From NCBI GenBank assembly GCA_045649045.1, contig JAZRPF010000043.1, forward strand, positions 459 to 64,458: a stretch of 64,000 nt of DNA, read 5' to 3'. The number at the start of each line of letters is the position of its first letter. Position 1 is the stretch's first letter. Under the pieces are notes generated by a model. The model did no database searches, had not been told where the DNA came from, and saw only the letters and a list, made by a program, of their open reading frames with translations. The position numbers and the translations under genes were made by a program. The DNA comes from Eubacteriales bacterium. Its GTDB lineage: Bacteria > Bacillota > Clostridia > Oscillospirales > CAG-272. This document shows, in pieces, positions 16,189 through 37,282 of the stretch.

Positions 16189-17541
16189 TCAGACAACACC
16201 GTAAGCCATCATAGCCTTTGCGACCTTGAGGAAGCCCGCGATATTCGCGCCTGCAACCAAATCGCCTTCCATGCCGTATTCCTTTGCGGCATCGACAGAG
16301 CTTTGATAGATGTTCTTCATGATGTCATGAAGCTTGGCGTCAACCTCTTCAGCGCTCCAGCTGTACCGCATGGAGTTCTGGGACATTTCAAGACCGGAAA
16401 CAGCAACGCCACCTGCGTTGACCGCCTTTGAGGGTGCAACAACGACGCCGTTTGCCTTCAAATATGCAACCGCCTCATTAGTGGTCGGCATATTGGAAAC
16501 CTCAACATAATACTTGATGCCGTTCGCAACGATTTTCTTTGCATCATCAAGGTTGACTTCGTTTTGGGTAGCGCAAGGCATAATGACATCTACCTTTTCG
16601 CCCCAAGGCTTCTGACCTGCGAAGAAAGGAACACCGAATTTGTCAGCATAGTCCTCAACTCTGTTGCGGCAGGAAGCGCGCATTTCAACAAGGAAATCAA
16701 CCTTTTCTTTGGTGGATATACCGTCTTTATCGTAGATATAGCCGTCAGGACCGGAAATAGTCACAACCTTACCGCCAAGCTCGTTCACCTTCTGAACGGT
16801 ACCCCAAGCAACATTACCGAAGCCCGAAACTGCGAAGGTCTTGCCCTTAATGCTTTCGCCAAAGGACTTGAGCATTTCAACCGTATAATAAACAGCACCG
16901 AAGCCTGTTGCCTCGGGACGAATAAGAGAACCGCCGTAGGGCAGTCCCTTACCTGTCAAAACGCCTGTGAACTCATTGCGCAGTCTCTTGTACTGACCGA
17001 AGAGATAACCGATTTCGCGTGCGCCAACACCGATATCACCTGCGGGAACATCAGTATCAGGACCGATGTGCTTGGCAAGCTCGGTCATAAAGCTCTGGCA
17101 GAAGCGCATCACTTCTCCATCGCTCTTGCCCTTCGGGTCAAAGTCAGAACCACCCTTACCGCCGCCCATAGGCAAGCCGGTCAAGGAGTTTTTGAAGGTC
17201 TGCTCAAAGCCAAGGAACTTGATAATGCTTTCGTTGACAGAGGGATGGAAGCGCAAACCGCCCTTGTAAGGACCGATAGCGCTGTTGAACTGAACACGGA
17301 AGCCGCGATTCACACGGACAACACCGTTATCATCTACCCACGGAACGCGGAACTTAATGATGCGCTCGGGCTCGACAATGCTTTCCATAACTCCCTTTTC
17401 AATAAATTCGGGATGACGGTCAATGACCGGCTCAAGAGATTCCAAAACCTCTTGCACTGTCTGGTGAAATTCAGGCTCACCGGGATTGCGGCGAATGACG
17501 GTATCCATCAATTCCTGCAATTTGGGATTTTTGAAGCTCAT
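16189..17541 (-). CDS. gdhA: NADP-specific glutamate dehydrogenase
   Basis: MSFKNPKLQELMDTVIRRNPGEPEFHQTVQEV...GLPMGGGKGGSDFDPKG... is classic Glu/Leu/Phe/Val dehydrogenase sequence. GGAGGA RBS 7 nt before the ATG at 17541; the track start 17625 is spurious. Confidence 0.95.
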   Translation of the reverse strand: MSFKNPKLQELMDTVIRRNPGEPEFHQTVQEVLESLEPVIDRHPEFIEKGVMESIVEPERIIKFRVPWVDDNGVVRVNRGFRVQFNSAIGPYKGGLRFHPSVNESIIKFLGFEQTFKNSLTGLPMGGGKGGSDFDPKGKSDGEVMRFCQSFMTELAKHIGPDTDVPAGDIGVGAREIGYLFGQYKRLRNEFTGVLTGKGLPYGGSLIRPEATGFGAVYYTVEMLKSFGESIKGKTFAVSGFGNVAWGTVQKVNELGGKVVTISGPDGYIYDKDGISTKEKVDFLVEMRASCRNRVEDYADKFGVPFFAGQKPWGEKVDVIMPCATQNEVNLDDAKKIVANGIKYYVEVSNMPTTNEAVAYLKANGVVVAPSKAVNAGGVAVSGLEMSQNSMRYSWSAEEVDAKLHDIMKNIYQSSVDAAKEYGMEGDLVAGANIAGFLKVAKAMMAYGVV

Positions 17542-17716
17542 GCTGTTTTCCTCCATATGTAATGAAATTTTGATTATCAAATCATTCTTATTGAGCACCT
17601 TTGCATTTCCACGGCAAATCATCAAAACCTCACTGTTATCAAAGGTTTTTCAATTTTCGGAAGGAGAGAAAAACGCTCAATTTTTGAAATTTTACTCTTT
17701 GTAAACTTCATTTTTT

Positions 17717-17859: not shown

Positions 17860-17888
17860 TTGACAAACAAGTTTTTTTGTGTTATAAT
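17860..17888 (+). promoter_or_regulatory. Consensus promoter of tRNA-Gln (TTGACA-17-TATAAT, TGt extended -10)
   Basis: cTTGACAaacaagtttttttgtgtTATAATag, about 25 nt upstream of the tRNA. Confidence 0.8.
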
Positions 17889-17913: not shown

Positions 17914-17991
17914 TGGGATATAGCCAAGTTGGTTAAGGCACAAGACTTTGACTCTTGCATTTCGCTGGTTCGAGTCCAGCTATCCCAGCCA
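17914..17991 (+). tRNA. tRNA-Gln (anticodon UUG), CCA encoded
   Basis: TGGGATATAGCCAAGTTGGTTAAGGCACAAGACTTTGACTCTTGCATTTCGCTGGTTCGAGTCCAGCTATCCCAGCCA. It has the U1-A72 pair typical of tRNA-Gln. The D-loop is somewhat long and the variable region is 6 nt by my fold (78 nt total). Confidence 0.9.
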
Positions 17992-17992
17992 G

Positions 17993-18022
17993 AAAAAAGC
18001 AAGTCGCAGGACTTGCTTTTTT
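17993..18022. terminator. Terminator after tRNA-Gln
   Basis: AAAAAA-GCAAGTC-gcag-GACTTGC-TTTTTT. Confidence 0.85.
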
Positions 18023-18308: not shown

Positions 18309-18336
18309 TTGACAAATCAAAAAACAGTGGTATAAT
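18309..18336 (+). promoter_or_regulatory. Promoter of the signal-peptidase/fibre-like operon (TTGACA-16-TATAAT, TGg extended -10)
   Basis: cTTGACAaatcaaaaaacagtggTATAATataac, about 95 nt upstream of the 18434 start. Confidence 0.75.
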
Positions 18337-18433
18337 ATAACTTGGTAAAAACATCTTTAAGTATACATAAGCCATCAAGGCTTTTGATATAAGTTCTCAT
18401 TAATTAAAATTTTTATAAAGGAGTGAACTCAAA

Positions 18434-19051
18434 ATGAAAACAATGAGAAATCGCAAAACAATTATCACCGCATTTTTACTCTTGGCATGCATGCTCATCG
18501 GTGTTGGTTACGCTGCAGTTACCAATGTTCTGGACATTCAGGGTAGTGCTGATGTGTCGCAGCAGCAGGCAGAAGACGAATTCAACGAAGATATCTACTT
18601 CACCGGTGCGAAGGCTCCCGACGGTGCAATCGTCACAAGCTTTTTGGTGTATGATGAGCAGGGACAGTATGACACCACCAAACAGGATGGCAAGACATAC
18701 CTTTATTCCGCAAACATCAACTCCAATAACAACGACAAAGCCCAGTTCACTATCAAGAATCTGGAAAACAAAGACGACCTCCAGACAATCACTTATCAAA
18801 TCAAAAATGACAGTGAGCACAACGCTGAGGTTTCACTCAAGACCATCACCAATACCAATGGTTCTACACAGGGCAACGCAGTGGCCGGTGATTTTGACTT
18901 TGATTTCTACTTTGGAACCGCAGGCACTAAGACTGCTACCGTTGCAGCCGGAGGAACAACCGAGGTTACTGTCGTAGTGAAGCTTCGCAATCAGGTTACC
19001 ACAGCTGTTTCCGCATCCTTTATTCTTGAGCTCAACGCAACTGCTGAATAA
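18434..19051 (+). CDS. Exported protein with SipW-type (TasA/camelysin-like class) N-terminal signal; small putative fibre/matrix subunit
   Basis: MKTMRNRKTIITAFLLLACMLIGVGYAAVTNVLDIQGSADV... followed by a Thr/Asn/Gly-rich, beta-strand-looking sequence (205 aa). AAAGGAG RBS. Confidence 0.65.
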   Translation: MKTMRNRKTIITAFLLLACMLIGVGYAAVTNVLDIQGSADVSQQQAEDEFNEDIYFTGAKAPDGAIVTSFLVYDEQGQYDTTKQDGKTYLYSANINSNNNDKAQFTIKNLENKDDLQTITYQIKNDSEHNAEVSLKTITNTNGSTQGNAVAGDFDFDFYFGTAGTKTATVAAGGTTEVTVVVKLRNQVTTAVSASFILELNATAE

Positions 19052-19096
19052 TTCGTAACCGTTCTGCAACATTAATCTCAACAAACGGAGGGCAGT

Positions 19097-20209
19097 ATGT
19101 TTAATGACAGAAAAAAGCTATATATACTGACATCATTATTGCTTGCCGCCCTCCTTGTTGCACTCTTTTTACCTGGAAATTACAGCGGAAGAATCGCAAC
19201 AGCGATTCTTCTGCTACCCCTTGTAGCGTGTATTTGGTTCTACATAAAGAAACGCAATATTCTTTCAATGAACAAGAAAGAAGTAACGATACTGATGGCT
19301 GCCATCGGGCTCGTTTATGTTGCAATTTATTACCTTGCGGGACTGAAATTCGGATTTTACAGAAATATTGATTTCCTGAATTTCAACCACATTATCCCTC
19401 TGTTTGTGATTATTGCCACGACAGAAGTCATCAGATGGGTAGTGAAAGCCCAGGAAGACAAAAAAGCAGATATTATTTGCTATGTTGCGTGCGTGGTTGC
19501 CGATGCACTTTGCTACGGTAACATTTATTACATAACATCATTTAACCGTTTTATTGATTTTTTGGCACTGACTATTTTCCCCGCTGTAATCGCCAATCTC
19601 GTTTACAGCTATATTTCAAAAAGATACGGCATCTATCCAAACCTGATATACAGATGTATAACAACCTTGTATGCATATCTTATCCCCATACTTCCGGGTG
19701 TTCCCGATTCATTATTTGCTTTCGCAAATCTTTTTGTTCCAATTGCAATTTATCTCTTTGTCGACGCGCTCTATGAAAAAAAGAGGCGTTACGCTCTTGC
19801 AAAAAAAAGAAGACTTGCTCCCGTTATCACGGCAATAGCCGTCATGATATTAGCGGGATTCGTTATGCTGATTTCCAATCAGTTTAAGTACGGCGCGCTC
19901 GTAATCGCCACCGAAAGCATGACCGGTGAAATCAACAAAGGCGATACCGTCATATTTGAGGCATATGACAGCCAGACCATTGAAAAAGGTCAGGTAATTG
20001 TTTTTGAAAAAAATGACTCTATGATTGTTCACAGAGTTGTAGATATAGAAAGAATCAACGGACAAAACCGATACATCACCAAAGGCGACGCCAATGAGGA
20101 CAACGACGCCGGACATGTCACAAAAGGACAGATTCGCGGACTCGTGAATTTCAAGGTTCCCTTCCTCGGTTATCCTACTCTTTGGTTACGCAGTCTTTTT
20201 GACAGATAA
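19097..20209 (+). CDS. SipW/archaeal-type signal peptidase I (S26) fused to a ~235-aa N-terminal polytopic membrane domain
   Basis: C-terminal 130 aa: ...ATESMTGEINKGDTVIF...SMIVHRVVDIE...YITKGDANEDNDAG.... These match the SM(E/T)P-like Ser box, the HRV His box and the KGDxN box of ER/archaeal-type signal peptidases. Residues 1-235 contain 6-7 hydrophobic helices of unknown function. Confidence 0.8.
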   Translation: MFNDRKKLYILTSLLLAALLVALFLPGNYSGRIATAILLLPLVACIWFYIKKRNILSMNKKEVTILMAAIGLVYVAIYYLAGLKFGFYRNIDFLNFNHIIPLFVIIATTEVIRWVVKAQEDKKADIICYVACVVADALCYGNIYYITSFNRFIDFLALTIFPAVIANLVYSYISKRYGIYPNLIYRCITTLYAYLIPILPGVPDSLFAFANLFVPIAIYLFVDALYEKKRRYALAKKRRLAPVITAIAVMILAGFVMLISNQFKYGALVIATESMTGEINKGDTVIFEAYDSQTIEKGQVIVFEKNDSMIVHRVVDIERINGQNRYITKGDANEDNDAGHVTKGQIRGLVNFKVPFLGYPTLWLRSLFDR

Positions 20210-20247
20210 TGTCCGTTTGTCAATAAACAGTGGGAAAGGAGAAAACA

Positions 20248-21780
20248 ATGTCTGAAGCTGAAAGAAAAAGGCGACAGGATTATAAACGGAACAGACACAA
20301 ATGGATTATTATCCAATCCATTGCAATTGCCCTTATCGCCACCGTTGCAATAGGCGCTTTCTTCATATATAACAATATGAATCGCACCTACTACATACAC
20401 TATACTGAACAAGGAAACGCAGACTACAAGGTTCATTACAAGGAAAACAATTTCTTTGACGAAGAATGGATTGGTCCCGGTCAGGCGTATATCGTTTCAC
20501 TGATTGACAATATTCAGGCAGATTTCAAATACGATCTCTCGATGGATACAGACCGCGTTGGCTTTGATTACAGCTATTCCATAAAAGCCAAGATACTCAT
20601 ACTTGACAAAAGATCCGGTGCTCCGCTTATCTCGCCGGAATATGAAATCATCCCAGAACGCTTCTCTACAATTCAAGGAGACAGCATCAAAATCCGCGAG
20701 CAGATCAATATTGATTATGTTGAATACAACAAATTTGCCAAAACATTTGTAGATAAATACGCGGAAGGTGCCAGCTGTTCACTTTCTGTGACACTCAATG
20801 TCAATGTGCTTGGACAGTGCGACGAATTTGAGACCAATAGCCAAAACTCATACTTCGTATCTCTGAAAATCCCACTGAACATCGAAACGATTGATGCAAC
20901 AATCACATCCAGCATCTCCGAAGCAGAAAACAAGGTTCTGGCTTGCTCGGGCGCGGTCAATCAGGATGTTTTTCTGTCCGTCGGCATTGTTGCAGCAATT
21001 GTGTCACTGGCTTTGGGCATTGTTTTCATAGCATTCGTATATCTGACGAGAAACGAGGACATTAACTACGCAAGAAAAGTAAAAAAGACAGTATCGGCTT
21101 ACCGTTCCTTTATTCAGCAAATAGAAGGAGAGTTTGATACCACGGGATATCAGACGGTATATATCAAGAGCTTTGTTGAGCTTCTCGGTATCCGCGATAC
21201 TATTCAGTCCCCTGTTCTTATGAGCGAAAACCCTGACCAGACCTGTACAAGCTTCCTCATTCCTACCGCTACCAAGCTTCTCTATATATTTGAGATAAAG
21301 GTAGATAATTACGATGCGATTTATTCGAAGAAGCCTATCATCCTCGACACGAACGCGGATATAGAGGCAGTCGCTGAAGCAATAGCTACGCCCGATGTCG
21401 TGCTTTCGGAAATCGAATTTGTCCCTGACGATGACGATGATTTTGCAGTTGCAGACGACGAGCCGGGTGTTGAGGTTGTTGGCGTTGTCTGGCCCGAAAG
21501 ACCTCACAAAAACAAAGTTTACCGCTACGACCCGAACGGTGAAACACTGAATGAGGGAGATGTGGTTCTTGTTCCCACTCGCGACGCCGAAAAAGGCAGA
21601 GAGGTTATCCGTAAGGCTGCAGTGGCTCACGAAAACCACCGTGTTGCTCCGGAACACATCAAGCACCCCTTGAAGAAAATCATCGGAATCGTTAAGCGCA
21701 GAGTCGAAAACGCCCTTGCGCCCGATACCGAATCTCAAACGGATAAAAAGAATTCGAGAGAGCAAGATAAAACAGAATAA
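20248..21780 (+). CDS. Bitopic membrane protein (extracytoplasmic domain between two TMs; cytoplasmic C-terminal domain), DUF5305-like by recollection
   Basis: Start at ATG 20248 (AAAGGAG RBS). TM1 is WIIIQSIAIALIATVAIGAFFIY and TM2 is VFLSVGIVAAIVSLALGIVFIAFVYL. An acidic linker is followed by VVGVVWPERPHKNKVYRYDPNGETLNEGDVVLVPT.... Proteins of this architecture sit next to SipW-type peptidases in Firmicutes, as far as I remember. Confidence 0.6.
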   Translation: MSEAERKRRQDYKRNRHKWIIIQSIAIALIATVAIGAFFIYNNMNRTYYIHYTEQGNADYKVHYKENNFFDEEWIGPGQAYIVSLIDNIQADFKYDLSMDTDRVGFDYSYSIKAKILILDKRSGAPLISPEYEIIPERFSTIQGDSIKIREQINIDYVEYNKFAKTFVDKYAEGASCSLSVTLNVNVLGQCDEFETNSQNSYFVSLKIPLNIETIDATITSSISEAENKVLACSGAVNQDVFLSVGIVAAIVSLALGIVFIAFVYLTRNEDINYARKVKKTVSAYRSFIQQIEGEFDTTGYQTVYIKSFVELLGIRDTIQSPVLMSENPDQTCTSFLIPTATKLLYIFEIKVDNYDAIYSKKPIILDTNADIEAVAEAIATPDVVLSEIEFVPDDDDDFAVADDEPGVEVVGVVWPERPHKNKVYRYDPNGETLNEGDVVLVPTRDAEKGREVIRKAAVAHENHRVAPEHIKHPLKKIIGIVKRRVENALAPDTESQTDKKNSREQDKTE

Positions 21781-21801
21781 AACAGGTAAAGGAGAGCAGA
21801 A

Positions 21802-23235
21802 ATGGACGTCAAGCCTTGGGTAAAGGTAACGGTGGGCATTATGCTCTCTTTTATGATTTTATTTGTTGGCATTGGATATGCAGCAATCAGTAATACTGTC
21901 AGTGTCATAGGCACCGCCGATGTGGAAATTCCTTCCGGACTTTTTATAACCGACATCACAATCAAATCATCGGGCAACCTCGACTACCAAACGGTTTCAT
22001 ATCTTGATTACACCACAACGGTTAACGCAAAAATAAGTAAGCAAAACAGGAACTCAACAGGAAATGTCGTTTATGAAATAACCGTCCTCAACAATACCGC
22101 ATATGAATACGCTTACCGCGGACTGTATTATACAACAAGCTACGGAAACAACTCATATGTAGCCACATCAAACTCATCAAACAAGCTGGGTGTTGTTGTA
22201 AGTTTCCCGAACGGAAGAATCGTTAAACCCGGTGAGCGCCTTACATTCACCGCTACATATACGATAGGCAGAAGTGTGAGCAACAGCCTGAATCTTGATA
22301 CATTACTGAACTATCAGTTCGGTATAAATGTTGACTCAATTGACAAGGCGGCAGATATAGTTCATGACAAATTCCTGAATATTCTCAACACGACATCCAC
22401 ATACCAACAGCTTGTTGATGCCCTTGACGATAAATTCGACGGCAATCAGGAATGGACATCCAACTACATCGGCAATGTCGGTAATGCCGTTGACAACGAT
22501 ATGATGACTGTAGAGACACTGTTTGCAGGTCAGCTCACCATGATGGTCAACGGGCAGGCACAAAAAGCGTGGGTAATTATTAAACACGAGAATCTGGACG
22601 AAAACATCAAAACAGGCGACGATTACACCTTGAACTATAATCAGTACGGAGAGGTAACTCACCAGGGCTGTGAGATGACACTTTACATGACCACAGATTC
22701 TCTCAGTCAAGCTAATGGTTGGGCTCCCGTATACGCCACCGTATTCACCTGCGACAGAGATGATGACGGCAATATCATCAGTAAGTGGTACAAGGTCGGC
22801 GACACTTATTCAGGTCAGGCTAACATTGTTGGATATAGGGGAGAATCCGGCGGAACTGGCTCGTTCGTCACAGATAACTGGAAGTCATACAGCTCAACTT
22901 ATTCGGTTACAGATCGTTATTCTTACAGTATCAGTGCGGATATGTCGATCAAAACTCTTATGCAGGTTGTCGATAACTCAACCATCAACGCATTCCAACA
23001 GCTTCTCGTCAAAGCTGAGCAAATGATTGCAAACGACAAATATGCCGGAACAGGTATTACCGTAGTGGAAGAAGCATACGCAAAAGCGGCATCATTCTAT
23101 ACATTGGACGCAAACCGAAAAGCCGTTGCCAATGCCGACACCCGAAGGGTATGGCTGATTCCCATTATGAACGAGCTTGACCATGTTCTGACAGTTGCTC
23201 AAGATGCCATTGATAGAATTGAGCAAGGTCCTTAA
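21802..23235 (+). CDS. Large exported protein with the same SipW-type signal motif; putative major fibre/matrix subunit or adhesin
   Basis: MDVKPWVKVTVGIMLSFMILFVGIGYAAISNTVSVIGTADV.... The GYAA motif occupies residues 25-28, exactly as in 18434..19051. 477 aa, rich in N/T/S/Y. AAAGGAG RBS. Confidence 0.65.
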   Translation: MDVKPWVKVTVGIMLSFMILFVGIGYAAISNTVSVIGTADVEIPSGLFITDITIKSSGNLDYQTVSYLDYTTTVNAKISKQNRNSTGNVVYEITVLNNTAYEYAYRGLYYTTSYGNNSYVATSNSSNKLGVVVSFPNGRIVKPGERLTFTATYTIGRSVSNSLNLDTLLNYQFGINVDSIDKAADIVHDKFLNILNTTSTYQQLVDALDDKFDGNQEWTSNYIGNVGNAVDNDMMTVETLFAGQLTMMVNGQAQKAWVIIKHENLDENIKTGDDYTLNYNQYGEVTHQGCEMTLYMTTDSLSQANGWAPVYATVFTCDRDDDGNIISKWYKVGDTYSGQANIVGYRGESGGTGSFVTDNWKSYSSTYSVTDRYSYSISADMSIKTLMQVVDNSTINAFQQLLVKAEQMIANDKYAGTGITVVEEAYAKAASFYTLDANRKAVANADTRRVWLIPIMNELDHVLTVAQDAIDRIEQGP

Positions 23236-23268
23236 AGCAGTCTTTCATCTGCATATAAAGCAAACAGC

Positions 23269-23302
23269 AAAAACAGCACTTGCTTCAGCAAGTGCTGTTT
23301 TT
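23269..23302 (+). terminator. Operon terminator
   Basis: ACAGCACTTGC-ttca-GCAAGTGCTGT followed by TTTT. Confidence 0.8.
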
Positions 23303-32544: not shown

Positions 32545-33384
32545 TCATTTTTCAATCATCCCATTAACAGCATTTAATCCGTAGTTCTTCAAAATTTTTA
32601 CTGCATTTTCTACATCTTCATATGTGGTTTCGGTATTCGGAAGTGTGTTCTTCATCGAAAGGGCTTGATATCTGGATGCAGCAAAGTGATGATATTGTAA
32701 TACCTTCACCTTTTCTATACCTTTCTTATTGCTCAAAAACTCACCGATTCGGTCACACTCACAATCATTGTAACCTTTGACAAGCGGATATCTGATTTCA
32801 ATCTTACAATTCCTTTCAGACAGAAATTTTAAATTTTCCAGTATCAACTGATTATCCCTACCTGTGCATTTTTTATGCACATTTGAGTCAATCGCTTTTA
32901 TGTCATATAAGAATTTATCGGTAAAAGGAATTATGGATTCTATAATCTCTTGTTTTACGAAACCGCATGTATCAATATAGACACTTATGCCTTTTTCCTT
33001 AAGTTTATATGCAAGTGCAATGGCAAAATCAGGTTGTGCAAGACATTCACCGCCGGACAATGTAACACCGCCACCACTGTTCCTGAAAAAAACTTCGTCT
33101 TGTATCAGCGTATCCACAAGGTCATTTACCTCATATTCGGTGCCGTACAGCATAAGTGCATCAGCAGGACAACTTTGCGCCGTTATATCGTTATGTTCAC
33201 CTCTACAAATACCGCATTGTACACATTTATTCCTGTAAAAAGCAATTTGTTTTTCAAACGATATACTTTCCGGATTGTGACACCAAATACATTTCAGTGG
33301 ACAGCCTTTAAAAAATACGGTTGTTCTAAGTCCGTCACCGCCGTGCGATTCCATTCGTTTTATTCCTGAAATCAGACCTTTCAT
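32545..33384 (-). CDS. Glycyl-radical enzyme activating enzyme (radical SAM)
   Basis: ...HGGDGLRTTVFFKGCPLKCIWCHNPES... (CxxxCxxC), an additional Cys-rich ferredoxin-like insert (CVQCGIC...C), and the GGGVTLSGGE SAM motif. The ATGA overlap couples it to the GRE gene. Confidence 0.9.
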   Translation of the reverse strand: MKGLISGIKRMESHGGDGLRTTVFFKGCPLKCIWCHNPESISFEKQIAFYRNKCVQCGICRGEHNDITAQSCPADALMLYGTEYEVNDLVDTLIQDEVFFRNSGGGVTLSGGECLAQPDFAIALAYKLKEKGISVYIDTCGFVKQEIIESIIPFTDKFLYDIKAIDSNVHKKCTGRDNQLILENLKFLSERNCKIEIRYPLVKGYNDCECDRIGEFLSNKKGIEKVKVLQYHHFAASRYQALSMKNTLPNTETTYEDVENAVKILKNYGLNAVNGMIEK

Positions 33385-35447
33385 CGTATTGACCTCGCTA
33401 TAAATTCATCCTTCTCTTTTTCACTGAGTGATGAAAACAATACGTTCCAACCGCACAATCTCACCTGTAAGTTAGGATACTTTTGAGGATTGAGTTTAGC
33501 CTCTTTCAGAATTTCTGTATCAAGCACATTATAATGCACAGCAAATCCACCAAGTTCAAAATATGTTTTGAGCGTAGAAACAAATGTTTTCAGGCCATTT
33601 TCGCCTTGAACAGCTGACGAATGAAGGTCTATATCCACAATTGTTCCGTTGGGAGTTTTTGAAGAATCAATAGATGCAACAGAGAGAAGATGTGCTGTAG
33701 CGCCATCACGGTCAGCACCAAAGGTTGCACTCGTATTCTGCGAAAGTGTTTCTTTTGCATATCTTCCGTCGGCAGAGGCTGCTGTTTTCTCACCAAAATC
33801 CCAGCGCCAGTTAATGGAAATTAATCCAAGTCTGTACACCCCGCCTTTCACATTTGGTTTTCCACTTATAGCACCAGAAAGGACATTGACAATATCTTTT
33901 GCAAGTTCATTGGTTTTCTTGTCGTTCATTCCAAATTTAGGGAACTTGTTCTTAATCAGCAAACGAAGAGCTTCTTGACCATCCCAGTTGGATTTTAATA
34001 TTTCTATCAATTCATTTAAGGTCAGGATTTTATCTTCAAACACTGCCTTTTTTATTGCAATAAGAGAATCTACAGCTGTTGCAAGACCAATTGCGTTAAC
34101 TGATGAATTGTTGTATTTTGCAGTATAATCACAGTATAAATCTCCGCCTTTTTCCAACGCAGAGGTATAAGTTCCTGAAAGTATGGGCGCAGAATGAACA
34201 TGTTTATAATGCGCTTCACAAATATCAGTAATTTTCATTGCACAATTACACATATACACAAGCTGTTTTTTAAACTCGGTATATAATGCATCATAGCTGT
34301 CAAAGCATCCGCTGTTTTCCGGTCCGACCTGCTTATCTGAGAGCATTGTTTTACCGTGGTTGAGCGCAAGCTCCAATGCAAGCGGAACATTTACTCTTGC
34401 ATTGCTCGAGCATGTCAGCTCGCCATCTCCGCCGCATTCATAACAACCGACAACATGATAGTTCACTGCATCTTCGTGCTTTTCTCCCATTTTTTCAAGA
34501 GACTCTATGATTTTTGCGTCCGACATAAATACTATACTGTTATTTCCGTTGCGAACGGCATCAAGAGCATTACTTATTATGTCGTCAGGTGTGTTTTCCG
34601 AACACAAAAGATGGAATTTTGTGTTGTTGGTATTTGCTATTGTATATGCATCCAAAATCAAATATGAAAGCTTATTGATTAAACTGTTCCCGGAACAATC
34701 TGTTCCGCCAAGAGCAAAAGGAATATTGGCAGGAGCATTCAATCGGTCTATCTCTTTGAGAAAGTCAATAAGTAGCTCTTTGACACTGCTTTCATCCTCA
34801 TCTTGACAGAAAGGATCAAAAAGGCTGTCAAGTCGGCCGAGTGTTCTTAAAAATGTCCCTTCAAACATAAGTTGCAACACATAATAAATTATCGTTGTCT
34901 GCATCGCTTCAAATAAATTGGAGGGAGCTTTTTCTGTCAGGTTTGCGATGCCTGCCGCCATTTCTGCCTTTCCGTTTTCTTTGGCGACTTCTGAAGCTCG
35001 TTTCATAAAACGCAAAGCAGCATCATAAACTTTTGATATTTCGTTATAAAATCTCTGTTTCTTTTTGTCATCTTTGTTCTTTTGAGCATAGTCGGATATT
35101 CTTTTTCTCAAGCCTGAAATACCTAAGGAAATTACACTTTCCCATTCCGCTGTAGTATGGCTGAAATCATACATGCCTGTGTATGCAAGGGTTTCATCGC
35201 CTACAGAAAGGTCAGTTTCAACAATTTCAGGACGATAATACTGATTTAATCTTTTCCAGTAAACTTCGTGTTGCACCTCGGCGCAATTGACTTCAACAAA
35301 GAAACGGTTATTTTCCGGCACTGTAATTTCACAGTTTTCGAGAAGATACACAATGTTTTGACAATCCAGCTCTAAAACATCGTCGTTTTTTCCAACTTCA
35401 AAATTTTGCATAGCATATTCAAGCAATTCTTCTCTTCTTAATGACAT
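33381..35447 (-). CDS. Glycyl-radical enzyme of unknown substrate (short, ~688 aa)
   Basis: Cys-loop HVVGCYECGG (G-C-x-E) at codon 34443-34445. C-terminal glycine-radical motif ...YPNLQVRLCGWNVLFSSLSEKEKDEFIARS, with Gly at 33450-33452. I prefer ATG 35447 (AAAGGA RBS) over the track's GTG 35456. Confidence 0.85.
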   Translation of the reverse strand: MSLRREELLEYAMQNFEVGKNDDVLELDCQNIVYLLENCEITVPENNRFFVEVNCAEVQHEVYWKRLNQYYRPEIVETDLSVGDETLAYTGMYDFSHTTAEWESVISLGISGLRKRISDYAQKNKDDKKKQRFYNEISKVYDAALRFMKRASEVAKENGKAEMAAGIANLTEKAPSNLFEAMQTTIIYYVLQLMFEGTFLRTLGRLDSLFDPFCQDEDESSVKELLIDFLKEIDRLNAPANIPFALGGTDCSGNSLINKLSYLILDAYTIANTNNTKFHLLCSENTPDDIISNALDAVRNGNNSIVFMSDAKIIESLEKMGEKHEDAVNYHVVGCYECGGDGELTCSSNARVNVPLALELALNHGKTMLSDKQVGPENSGCFDSYDALYTEFKKQLVYMCNCAMKITDICEAHYKHVHSAPILSGTYTSALEKGGDLYCDYTAKYNNSSVNAIGLATAVDSLIAIKKAVFEDKILTLNELIEILKSNWDGQEALRLLIKNKFPKFGMNDKKTNELAKDIVNVLSGAISGKPNVKGGVYRLGLISINWRWDFGEKTAASADGRYAKETLSQNTSATFGADRDGATAHLLSVASIDSSKTPNGTIVDIDLHSSAVQGENGLKTFVSTLKTYFELGGFAVHYNVLDTEILKEAKLNPQKYPNLQVRLCGWNVLFSSLSEKEKDEFIARSIR

Positions 35448-35452
35448 AACAA

Positions 35453-36319
35453 TCACATTCCTTTCAATATAAATTCTTCTGCACCCACCGCCATGTTTTC
35501 CACCATAAAAACTCCCCCGTCATGTTCGCCTGCCGGACTATCCTCACCCGCTGTTGTAACAAACATAATAGATTTGTCCTCACCACCAAAAGCGACGCTT
35601 ATGATGCGATAAACAGGAAAGTAAATTTCATTAATAATCTCACCTTGAGGGTTATAACATAACAATGGTCCTCCCGGTCTGCAACATGCGACCCAAAGGT
35701 TTCCCTCAATATCTGTAGCCATGCCGTCAGGCAGGCAACCGGAGGCAAACACTTTTTTGTTGCTAAGCATGCCGGTTGTTTTATCATAGTCATATACATA
35801 CACGCAGTCATGGTCAGTTACAGCAAAATACAATTTATCCAGTTGAGGAGAAAACCGTATTCCGTTGGGTGTGTTTCCTGTTTCCTCTTCAAGACAAACT
35901 AAATCTGCCTTATTATCCAACAACCAAAACGAGCCGTGCTCTGCCCGTTTATCAGGCTCGAAATAATGCGTTGCAAGCATACCGCAATATATGCGTCCTT
36001 TTGAGTCTGCAATCACATCATTAAACAGTGCCTTTTTAAAATCCTTGTATAATACCGGCTCCGAATAGGGCTTCCATTTCCAAATTTTTCCATTATCGGC
36101 AAACAAAAGCATATAATCGTTGTCTGTAAAAACCATACTGCCGATTCTTCCTATATTCAGTTGAAAACATTCAAAATCATTCACATCATCATTGACCTTT
36201 TTTCTATATAGCTCGCCATGGAATCCATGCCAGTAAAGAAATTTATCTTTCTTATCCCACATTGGCGATTCTGATAATTCACAATGACAATCGGCAAATA
36301 GTTTGATGTCTTTTTTCAT
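35453..36319 (-). CDS. SMP-30/gluconolactonase/LRE-like beta-propeller protein
   Basis: ...CELSESPMWD...FNDVIADSKGRIYCG...TPNGIRFSPQLDKLYFAV...PDGMATDIEGNLWVA...VAFGGEDKSIMFVTTA. AAAGGAGG RBS before ATG 36319. Confidence 0.8.
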   Translation of the reverse strand: MKKDIKLFADCHCELSESPMWDKKDKFLYWHGFHGELYRKKVNDDVNDFECFQLNIGRIGSMVFTDNDYMLLFADNGKIWKWKPYSEPVLYKDFKKALFNDVIADSKGRIYCGMLATHYFEPDKRAEHGSFWLLDNKADLVCLEEETGNTPNGIRFSPQLDKLYFAVTDHDCVYVYDYDKTTGMLSNKKVFASGCLPDGMATDIEGNLWVACCRPGGPLLCYNPQGEIINEIYFPVYRIISVAFGGEDKSIMFVTTAGEDSPAGEHDGGVFMVENMAVGAEEFILKGM

Positions 36320-36490
36320 ATTAATTTTTCCTCCTTTACAATACAATTATATTTCACTTCAACAAAATAGTCAATATGAATTAACGACTATATTATACTT
36401 TTCGAAATAAATTAACCAAGTATATTGATTTTTAGCCTAGAATATATTATAATATTAGAAACAATACAAATCCAAAAGGAAGAACAAACT

Positions 36491-37282
36491 ATGGAAAAAT
36501 CGGATATATTATCAACCGACTTTTACCTGAAAAAACTGATCTGCGTCATCAAATCCGAGATGAACAACTGTACAAAAACAATCTATGTCAACGGAAGGCA
36601 CAGCCATGCTTATGTATATATTTTGTCAGGCTCCTGCAGTTACAATTTTAATAATGAATATGAAATCACCGTCAATACGGGCGATGTTCTTTATCTTGCA
36701 CAAAATGCAGAATATACAATGAATGTCCATACACCAAATTACCGATATATATACTGTGATTTTGAGCTTAATGATAATGTTGTCAGGAAAAGCAATGTGT
36801 ATACTCCAGAAAACACTTCCGATGTAGAAAATCAGTTTATCAAGCTTATAAAAACCTACAATATGTTTTCAATGGCATCTTTTTCTAGGTGCATATCTTT
36901 GATATATCATATTCACAGTATGCTTTTAAAAACAAAAGAAACGATCAATTTAGAAAAGGGAACAGAAAACAAAATTGTGAACGCCAGGAAATATATTGAC
37001 ACTCATTTTTCTGACAATATGCTCAGCATCTCGTCGCTTGCCGAGATGGCCGAAATCAGTGAGGTTTACTTTAGAAAACTGTTTAAGTTGCAATATCATA
37101 TGTCACCGGCACAATATCTTACATCTTTGAGAATAAAAAAAGCAAAACAACTCCTTGGTTATAGTTTTTTAGCATTAGAAGAATGTGCAAATCAATGTGG
37201 CTTCTCAACAGTGCAATATTTTTGTCGTGTGTTCAAAAACTCCACCGGTATGACACCGACAGAGTATAGAAACAAAAAATAA
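36491..37282 (+). CDS. AraC family transcriptional regulator (cupin sensor plus HTH), divergent from the GRE operon
   Basis: C-terminal ...ISSLAEMAEISEVYFRKLFKLQYHMSPAQYLTSLRIKKAKQLL...CGFSTVQYFCRVFKNSTGMTPTEYR. Confidence 0.9.
   Translation: MEKSDILSTDFYLKKLICVIKSEMNNCTKTIYVNGRHSHAYVYILSGSCSYNFNNEYEITVNTGDVLYLAQNAEYTMNVHTPNYRYIYCDFELNDNVVRKSNVYTPENTSDVENQFIKLIKTYNMFSMASFSRCISLIYHIHSMLLKTKETINLEKGTENKIVNARKYIDTHFSDNMLSISSLAEMAEISEVYFRKLFKLQYHMSPAQYLTSLRIKKAKQLLGYSFLALEECANQCGFSTVQYFCRVFKNSTGMTPTEYRNKK

Follow-up and report, generated by a model that had tools for sequence, protein, structure and literature searches.

A 64,000-nucleotide (nt) stretch of DNA from a Eubacteriales bacterium (the window; contig JAZRPF010000043.1 of assembly GCA_045649045.1, positions 459 to 64,458, forward strand) contains a four-gene operon that, with a probability we put at roughly 60%, encodes a chaperone-free surface-fibre system pairing a dedicated signal peptidase of the endoplasmic reticulum (ER)/archaeal type with a DUF5305 protein. 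All four open reading frames (ORFs) lie on the + strand. Gene 1 (18434-19051; 205 amino acids, aa) encodes the putative major fibre subunit, gene 2 (19097-20209, 370 aa) a polytopic membrane protein with a signal peptidase domain, gene 3 (20248-21780, 510 aa, with an in-frame alternative GTG start at 20230) a DUF5305 membrane protein, and gene 4 (21802-23235, 477 aa) a putative tip or nucleator subunit. An initial annotation of this DNA had already proposed a fibre-assembly operon. The proposal is supported in part, and indirectly, by the peptidase, its DUF5305 partner, two cognate exported proteins, a donor-strand-like fold, synteny and a layout shared with the Tafi and AbpX fibre loci; polymerisation itself, by donor strand and with gene 4 as tip or nucleator, is what we infer from motif, fold class, co-variation and analogy, and the roles given to genes 3 and 4 are putative in the same sense. 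The system, most likely a thin protein fibre on the cell surface of an uncultured Clostridium of the herbivore gut, belongs to a recently defined kind, known mainly from archaea and Bacillus, rather than to a new one, and is a new bacterial example of it.

The genes are separated by 45, 38 and 21 nt, and each is preceded by a GGAG-type ribosome-binding site, which for gene 1 reads AAAGGAG (18417-18423, +). A sigma-70-type promoter, TTGACA-16 nt-TATAAT (18309-18336, +), matches the consensus at 12 of 12 positions and has a TG extension, and an intrinsic terminator hairpin closes the unit (23269-23302, +; 15-bp stem, ending in U5, -24.1 kcal/mol, z = -5.2). The arrangement of four genes between one promoter and one terminator was therefore found as first described. 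An Rfam search of the leader and operon returned no riboswitch or other Rfam element. When GTDB species genomes were scanned with the gene 4 family, 57 loci were recovered, all in metagenome-assembled genomes (MAGs), and some 45 of these species-level loci retain all four genes of the cassette.

Gene 2 is securely assigned from its sequence as an ER/archaeal-type signal peptidase. Residues 244-362 match NCBIfam TIGR02228 (archaeal/ER-type signal peptidase I, MEROPS S26B) at 82.9 bits, above the cutoff of 51.85, and the protein also matches Pfam Peptidase_S26 (27.0 bits, above 22.9). The last transmembrane (TM) helix and the peptidase domain are encoded at 19802-20209 (+) and hold the boxes ESMTGE (Ser274), VHRV (His312-Arg313) and KGDANEDND (Asp331, Asp337). 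These residues are invariant in 50 gene 2 homologues and form a Ser-His set with Asp in place of the bacterial Ser-Lys dyad. In a search of the PDB with the profile of the 50 homologues, the closest solved relatives were human SEC11C (E 7.5e-15) and SEC11A (E 5.1e-14). The enzyme had been placed in the SipW class; the ER/archaeal boxes stand, as the TIGR02228 and SEC11 matches attest, and equivalence to SipW does not. As a SipW equivalog gene 2 was rejected on its NF046067 score of 52.6 bits against a cutoff of 190 and on an extra polytopic domain of ~235 aa.

This N-terminal domain (aa 1-235; 19097-19801, +) has about eight TM helices by hydropathy. Over the whole protein, eight segments exceed the threshold and a ninth (180-200) is weaker, giving nine predicted TM helices, and the loops at 51-53 and 227-240 are strongly positive. 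Because nine helices combine with positive-inside loops, the catalytic domain would lie on the outer face of the cell. Residues K51-K52-R53, P101, E110, R113, G178, P181 and P215 of the N-terminal domain are invariant across the same 50 homologues, and NCBIfam and Pfam scans gave no family match for its ~235 residues; a sub-threshold match to Wzy_C (E 0.0035) was dismissed. Homologues of gene 2 number 1414, and all 120 of those listed are 308-392 aa long, mostly 370-380 aa.

The identification of gene 3 as a DUF5305 protein is also secure at the level of domain search, residues 131-330 matching PF17231 at 31.9 bits (gathering threshold 29). Its homologues in three related loci (L064, L066 and L067) match the same model. 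Hydropathy placed TM helices at 20-38 and 245-263, in agreement with the initial description of a two-TM protein with an outside domain and a cytoplasmic tail, so that the order reads TM 20-38, outside domain, TM 245-263, cytoplasmic domain, variable linker and small C-terminal domain. Among 39 homologues, residues 1-360 are conserved, the cytoplasmic block 271-360 most of all. The linker that follows (361-420) is hypervariable and in other species carries insertions as long as ~600 aa; about 85% of the homologues have the small C-terminal domain (421-480). By analogy with known systems, gene 3 has a putative role as a peptidase accessory or assembly platform. The tail, residues 361-510, corresponds to 21328-21780 of the window, and the gene 3 homologue of locus L001 (9864-13232) reaches 1122 aa. 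The C-terminal domain begins KVYRYDPNGETLNEGDVVLVP and is missing from the shortest homologues (364-384 aa); its sole match was a weak one to phrog_3489.

Genes 1 and 4 are likely substrates of the gene 2 peptidase. Each begins with a common module of ~43 residues, in which a basic N-terminal region is followed by a hydrophobic segment of ~19 residues and a cleavage/strand motif. The signal-anchor starts and common motif noted at the outset are borne out by BLASTP, which aligned the two proteins at 41% identity over 32 aa with the shared pattern G-x-GYAA...G-x-ADV. In gene 1 the predicted signal peptide comprises aa 1-27 (18434-18514, +) and ends in G25-Y26-A27; a putative donor strand with a conserved alternating pattern follows at aa 28-42, AVTNVLDIQGSADVS (18515-18559, +). 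The motif of both families can be written G(-3)-[Y/F](-2)-A(-1), a variable +1, then [L/V/I]-[T/S]-[D/N]-x-L-x-[I/V]-x-G-x-[A/V]-x-[V/I]. In the gene 1 and gene 4 families, respectively, Ala(-1) is found in 100% and 97%, Gly(-3) in 99% and 100%, and Gly(+10) in 97% and 98%. Among 134 gene 1 homologues A27 is the sole invariant column, position 26 is always Y or F, and the gene 1 strand places small or hydrophobic residues at +6, +8, +10, +12 and +14. Since small residues occupy -3 and -1 and +1 is variable, both proteins are likely to be cleaved after Ala27, presumably by gene 2. A regular expression for the motif, run over the window and 60+ related loci, matched only gene 1 and gene 4 homologues, bar one chance match.

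The likeness of genes 1 and 4 is confined to this module. An hhalign comparison of the two families gave E 7.5e-13, and the match was gone once residues 1-43 were trimmed; because it vanishes without them, the globular domains are not demonstrably homologous, and we rejected the idea that the two genes are homologues throughout. Neither gene 1 nor gene 4 has an RR within its first 35 residues, and without a twin-arginine motif export is presumably through Sec. Residues 4-8 of gene 1 (18443-18457) are strongly conserved as M-K-N-R-K, with Met, Asn and Arg invariant in 65 sequences; this is unusual in signal peptides and not common to gene 4.

The strands of genes 1 and 4 also co-vary. Over 38 loci, the two strands of the same genome agree at 7.61 of the 16 residues after the cleavage site, whereas shuffled pairings agree at 6.00 of 16 (standard deviation 0.19) and none of 5000 shuffles reached 7.61. 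Rare variants are shared within pairs: N/N (as in the window), K/K or E/E at +4, F/F at +6 and +8, and SY/SY at +13/+14. Such a pattern fits two strands that a single partner reads, be it the peptidase or the gene 1 acceptor groove.

Gene 1 is the fastest evolving member of the cassette, with a median identity to the window protein of 33% compared with 48-51% for the other three. A word index yielded 69 homologues, and a profile search reached 2428 representative clusters at E<=1e-3, 1037 of them at E<=1e-10. Sources that name the homologues of genes 1 and 4 list them as hypothetical proteins from MAGs of Clostridia or Oscillospiraceae, except for one gene 1 homologue with an evident misannotation. 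The mature protein is acidic (isoelectric point, pI, 4.23; 14.1% Asp+Glu). An AlphaFold2 (AF2) monomer model with a mean confidence score (pLDDT) of 90.5 shows a TM helix at 7-23, an unstructured segment at 24-42, a helix at 43-52 and then an immunoglobulin (Ig)-like beta-sandwich. When this model was compared with the PDB by Foldseek, nine of the 13 best matches were donor-strand filament subunits, among them CfaB, CS17, the Saci_0406 thread, AbpA, FimG and PapK/PapG. The fold prediction suggested by the initial annotation thus returned a sandwich whose nearest solved structures are donor-strand subunits, with weak scores. The TasA fibre stood at rank 47 of the list. Searches of PDB sequences with the gene 1 and gene 4 family profiles produced weak Ig-domain matches (C5a peptidase Fn3-like, E 2e-3) or noise.

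Among the closest parallels is AbpX of Pyrodictium abyssi, a member of the TasA superfamily. Loci of the AbpX type in archaea and Bacillota combine minor subunits and tip proteins with a TIGR02228 peptidase of ~10 TM helices and a DUF5305 accessory, and the W2-I12 donor strand of AbpX is visible in the fibril by cryo-electron microscopy (bioRxiv 10.64898/2026.01.04.697558). Its precursor reads ...AIGLTYA/QWSETLSLSATIS, with the slash at the cleavage site (supplement, bioRxiv 10.64898/2026.01.04.697558). In an hhalign comparison of the gene 1 family profile with the single AbpX sequence, GLTYAQWSETLSLS aligned in register with GVGYAALTDxLxIxG. Gene 1 resembles AbpX as a small acidic subunit (pI ~4, ~15% acidic) in which ...G-x-x-Y-A at the cleavage site is followed by an amphipathic strand in the same register. 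The cassette shares with the AbpX loci a dedicated peptidase of the TIGR02228 type that spans the membrane about ten times (nine TM helices are predicted in gene 2), a DUF5305 protein whose two TM helices accompany a cytoplasmic domain and a putative sandwich on the outside, and a separate, larger predicted tip protein. It differs in that the SLH/LPXTG anchor, sortase, and cyclic di-GMP or kinase regulators of bacterial abpX loci are absent from the window cassette, and in the strand, where +2 is aliphatic in gene 1 and aromatic in AbpX and +4 is Asn in the window.

The Tafi (Tat-fimbriae) system of haloarchaea, studied in Haloarcula, has a similar layout of major pilin (TafA/E), processing peptidase (TafD), DUF5305 protein (TafG) and two-domain tip (TafC). 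Deletion of the TafD peptidase abolishes TafA processing and fimbriae (PMC11821415), TafG is the proposed helper of TafD (PMC11821415, PMC12337348), and TafC is a two-domain tip/initiator with an N-terminal donor strand (PMC11821415). The peptidase domain is N-terminal in TafD, a protein with four TM helices, and C-terminal in gene 2, which has eight additional TM helices at its N-terminus; the window cassette, in a bacterial host, also lacks the twin-arginine signal, the TafB regulator and the TafF anchor. The Sec-dependent DUF1102 loci of Thermococcales and Archaeoglobales belong to the same comparison set (PMC11821415, PMC12337348).

The tapA-sipW-tasA operon of Bacillus subtilis likewise encodes a dedicated ER/archaeal-type peptidase between the fibre subunit and a larger accessory subunit, the latter supplying the first donor strand. 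Its cleavage site also falls in the register of gene 1: in PDB 8AUR the first residue of the TasA fibre chain is Ala28, which follows ...GGGTWA, and both the position (after residue 27) and the -1/-2 pattern agree. The differences are that gene 2 is no SipW equivalog and has the extra 8-TM domain, and that genes 1 and 4 fail the TIGR04088 and TasA models. The Bacillus operon is not known to contain a DUF5305 gene. Beyond fibre systems, the ER signal peptidase complex (SEC11, SPC22/23, SPC25, SPC12) is comparable in that SEC11A/C are the nearest solved matches of the gene 2 catalytic domain, and differs as a general secretory enzyme, not one dedicated to fibres. The AbpX preprint likens the membrane accessory with its outside beta-sandwich to subunits of the ER complex (bioRxiv 10.64898/2026.01.04.697558). 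Sortase-assembled Gram-positive pili were considered and rejected, proteins 1-4 having no LPXTG-like motif and the neighbours in the gene tables read including no sortase.

From these parallels a mechanism can be proposed. Genes 1 and 4 would be exported by Sec and then held in the membrane by their long signal anchors until the gene 2 peptidase, probably with gene 3, cleaves them after G-[Y/F]-A (Ala27). Cleavage would release the amphipathic N-terminal strand, aa 28-42, and the freed strand would enter the Ig-like sandwich of the next gene 1 subunit by donor-strand complementation, so building a gene 1 filament. Gene 4 would be the first subunit, a tip or nucleator like TafC or TapA, and would probably hold the binding function.

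Several results weigh against a donor-strand fibre. In scans with Pfam, NCBIfam and PHROGs neither gene 1 nor gene 4 matched a model; TIGR04088, TIGR04089, TIGR04090 and TasA were among those without a match. The initial annotation had pointed to two of these families, and neither was found: TIGR04088 did not match genes 1 or 4 at E<=10, and the TasA/camelysin models matched neither these proteins nor any of the 134 gene 1 homologues in Pfam and NCBIfam (NF046066, Peptidase_M73). Because AbpX, a proven donor-strand fibre subunit, fails TIGR04088 as well (TasA, as a control, matches it at 38 bits), this failure does not exclude membership of the wider class. The Foldseek matches of gene 1 are weak, with none at E<=1e-3 (E 3e-3 to 7e-2, TM-score 0.3-0.47), and Ig-like sandwiches are widespread. 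The hhalign match between gene 1 and AbpX is only suggestive (E 3.6e-4, probability 37%, 104 columns), and alignment of the family profile with TasA gave no sequence link (probability 1.5%). At +2, where AbpX is reported to be aromatic, the gene 1 family has L in 64%, V in 24%, I in 7% and an aromatic residue in about 2%, and the window proteins have Val or Ile; at +4, reported acidic in AbpX, the family has D in 83% and both window proteins have Asn. The co-variation test ignores shared phylogeny and gene conversion, and its signal could reflect the specificity of the peptidase rather than a shared acceptor groove. Finally, there is no anchor, sortase or LPXTG motif by which a fibre would stay attached.

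The same weaknesses feed the best of the alternatives, which we regard as unlikely: genes 1 and 4 would be cognate substrates of the peptidase that do not polymerise and act as monomeric surface or secreted proteins, such as an adhesin (gene 4) and a small Ig-like coat protein of the BslA-like kind or partner protein (gene 1), with the conserved segment after the cleavage site needed only for recognition by the peptidase or for association with the wall. The Ig-like fold is a generic one, gene 1 family members give weak matches to fn3_5, CARDB and DUF11 and in one case to BslA, the structural scores of gene 1 are low, and the cassette comes without anchor or minor subunits. Conservation nevertheless reaches 14 residues beyond the cleavage site, in a strict alternating pattern with 97-98% Gly at +10, which is a longer stretch than signal peptidases usually read. 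In neither the gene 1 nor the gene 4 model does this segment pair with another part of its own chain, the nearest structural neighbours are specifically donor-strand pilins, and all characterised peptidase-plus-DUF5305 loci make filaments.

Gene 4 raises a second alternative. Its conservation is unusually high (more than 100 columns are invariant), and it evolves more slowly than gene 1; none of its 596 homologues is annotated. From the N-terminus onward it comprises the signal/strand module (1-43), a beta-sandwich (47-177), a beta-rich domain (239-377) and, at the C-terminus, a helical domain (383-475). The AF2 monomer model (pLDDT 78) leaves residues 30-46 unstructured, places helices after the sandwich and has a disordered stretch at 199-236. 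Foldseek returned generic sandwiches only (AP2 appendage, AMO-B, VP28), and several of its matches were in common with gene 1 (VP28, the PapG pilin domain, VAP-MSP, FixG-like). High conservation, including the invariant K261-H262-E263 and C290-E291, and slow evolution would suit a secreted enzyme or toxin-like effector that is matured by the peptidase, with gene 1 as an accessory, inhibitor or chaperone-like protein. We consider this improbable, since Pfam, NCBIfam, PDB sequences and Foldseek gave no enzyme family or fold, Foldseek returned no lectin fold either, no catalytic motif is recognisable, and the gene 4 N-terminus consists of the gene 1 strand module plus a sandwich, as in the two-domain TafC tip. 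An enzyme fold in the predicted structure, which the initial annotation had named as evidence against a fibre, was not found for gene 4 by Foldseek.

The region of gene 4 at aa 261-320 (22582-22761) contains, besides the residues just named, an invariant T271-G272-D273 and a near-invariant C317-D-R-D. The mature protein has no Cys other than Cys290 and Cys317, which may be joined by a disulfide; metal binding by the Asp-rich loops is a further possibility.

Least probable of all is that the N-terminal segments are uncleaved anchors, making genes 1 and 4 type II membrane proteins beside a general peptidase that is adjacent by chance: the hydrophobic segment is long, and the 64-kb window holds no second S26 peptidase, although a window of this size is too small to be informative, but a pair of invariant small residues at -3 and -1 next to a variable +1 marks a cleavage site, the hydrophobic regions of TasA and AbpX are equally long yet cleaved, and gene 2 accompanies genes 1, 3 and 4 in about 50 species with varied neighbourhoods, which is unexpected of a housekeeping enzyme and disfavours that role.

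If the operon does encode a surface-fibre system, a wider and distinctly tentative picture can be drawn. The cassette might be a minimal four-component machine for donor-strand pilus assembly in Gram-positive bacteria, with the 8-TM domain of gene 2 and the DUF5305 protein together forming a membrane platform that is functionally equivalent to chaperone plus usher. The platform might keep uncleaved subunits by their signal anchors and couple cleavage to strand insertion, and the variable cytoplasmic tail of the DUF5305 protein might link assembly to intracellular signals. On the same speculative footing, the cassettes would represent a large family of adhesive fibres, hitherto not recognised as such, in uncultured, fibre-degrading gut Clostridia. 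The donor-strand fibres of the peptidase and DUF5305 type characterised so far come only from Bacillus (TasA) and a handful of archaea (AbpA, AbpX, Tafi, threads), and the loci described here are a compact four-gene form of such machinery in many uncultured Clostridia/Oscillospiraceae of ruminant hindguts. Were the reading confirmed, a large block of hypothetical proteins would gain a name and a function open to test, gut commensals would have a likely organelle of adhesion or aggregation, and the cassette would offer a minimal system for studying how cleavage is coupled to chaperone-free polymerisation.

Where isolate names state a source, the loci come from ruminant or deer gut (yak, sheep, goat, roe deer, cattle). 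In loci with enough flanking sequence the gene order is mostly 1-2-3-4, with 4-1-2-3 in about eight and a divergent arrangement in one. Distant relatives of gene 1 (31-36% identity) lie in the same cassette, and the neighbourhoods of these distant cassettes differ (rpsB-tsf; an acyltransferase and LacI; dap genes; glycogen genes). No sortase, anchor or regulator is conserved beside the cassette in the loci whose gene tables were read. In one locus (L061, 2044-3708) two tandem gene 1 paralogues precede the peptidase gene, and these may be a major and a minor subunit.

The identity of gene 4 to the window protein is out of step with that of genes 1-3 in several loci (L001, L008-L015, L028, L039 and L056). 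In L008-L015 gene 4 is ~70% identical and gene 1 23-40%, and in L001 gene 1 is 64% and gene 4 41% identical. This discordance, and the position of gene 4 upstream of gene 1 in some loci, suggests that the tip gene has been exchanged between cassettes. Because the contexts differ between lineages and gene 4 appears shuffled relative to genes 1-3, some mobility of the cassette over evolutionary time is plausible.

The more specific suggestion that the window operon was acquired horizontally beside tRNA-Gln (17914-17991, upstream of the operon) has weak support. There is no copy of the tRNA-Gln 3' end, no flanking direct repeat and no integrase near the operon, and the gdh ... uvrBA neighbourhood recurs in a relative with a 96%-identical gene 4 product. 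The operon was also called markedly AT-rich. It is modestly AT-rich, at 42.9% G+C against 46.8% for the window, and the adverb overstates the case because ~9% of 5-kb windows have a lower G+C. On the missing att repeat and integrase, the modest GC dip and the close relative with the same housekeeping context, we rejected the operon as a recognisable island.

Three further perfect or near-perfect sigma-70 consensus promoters with a TG extension lie nearby, at 17860-17888, 17745-17717 (-) and 16116-16088 (-). One of the three precedes tRNA-Gln, and that at 16116-16088 (-) sits downstream of a glutamate dehydrogenase ORF (16189-17625, -). The tRNA-Gln gene has its own hairpin behind it, at about 17995-18022. 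Elsewhere in the window, a low-GC stretch at 32545-37282 (31-40% G+C) contains four genes that were typed by eye from their translations only: a radical-SAM activase-like protein (279 aa), a 691-aa glycyl-radical enzyme look-alike, a 297-aa SMP-30/gluconolactonase-like protein and an AraC-type regulator.

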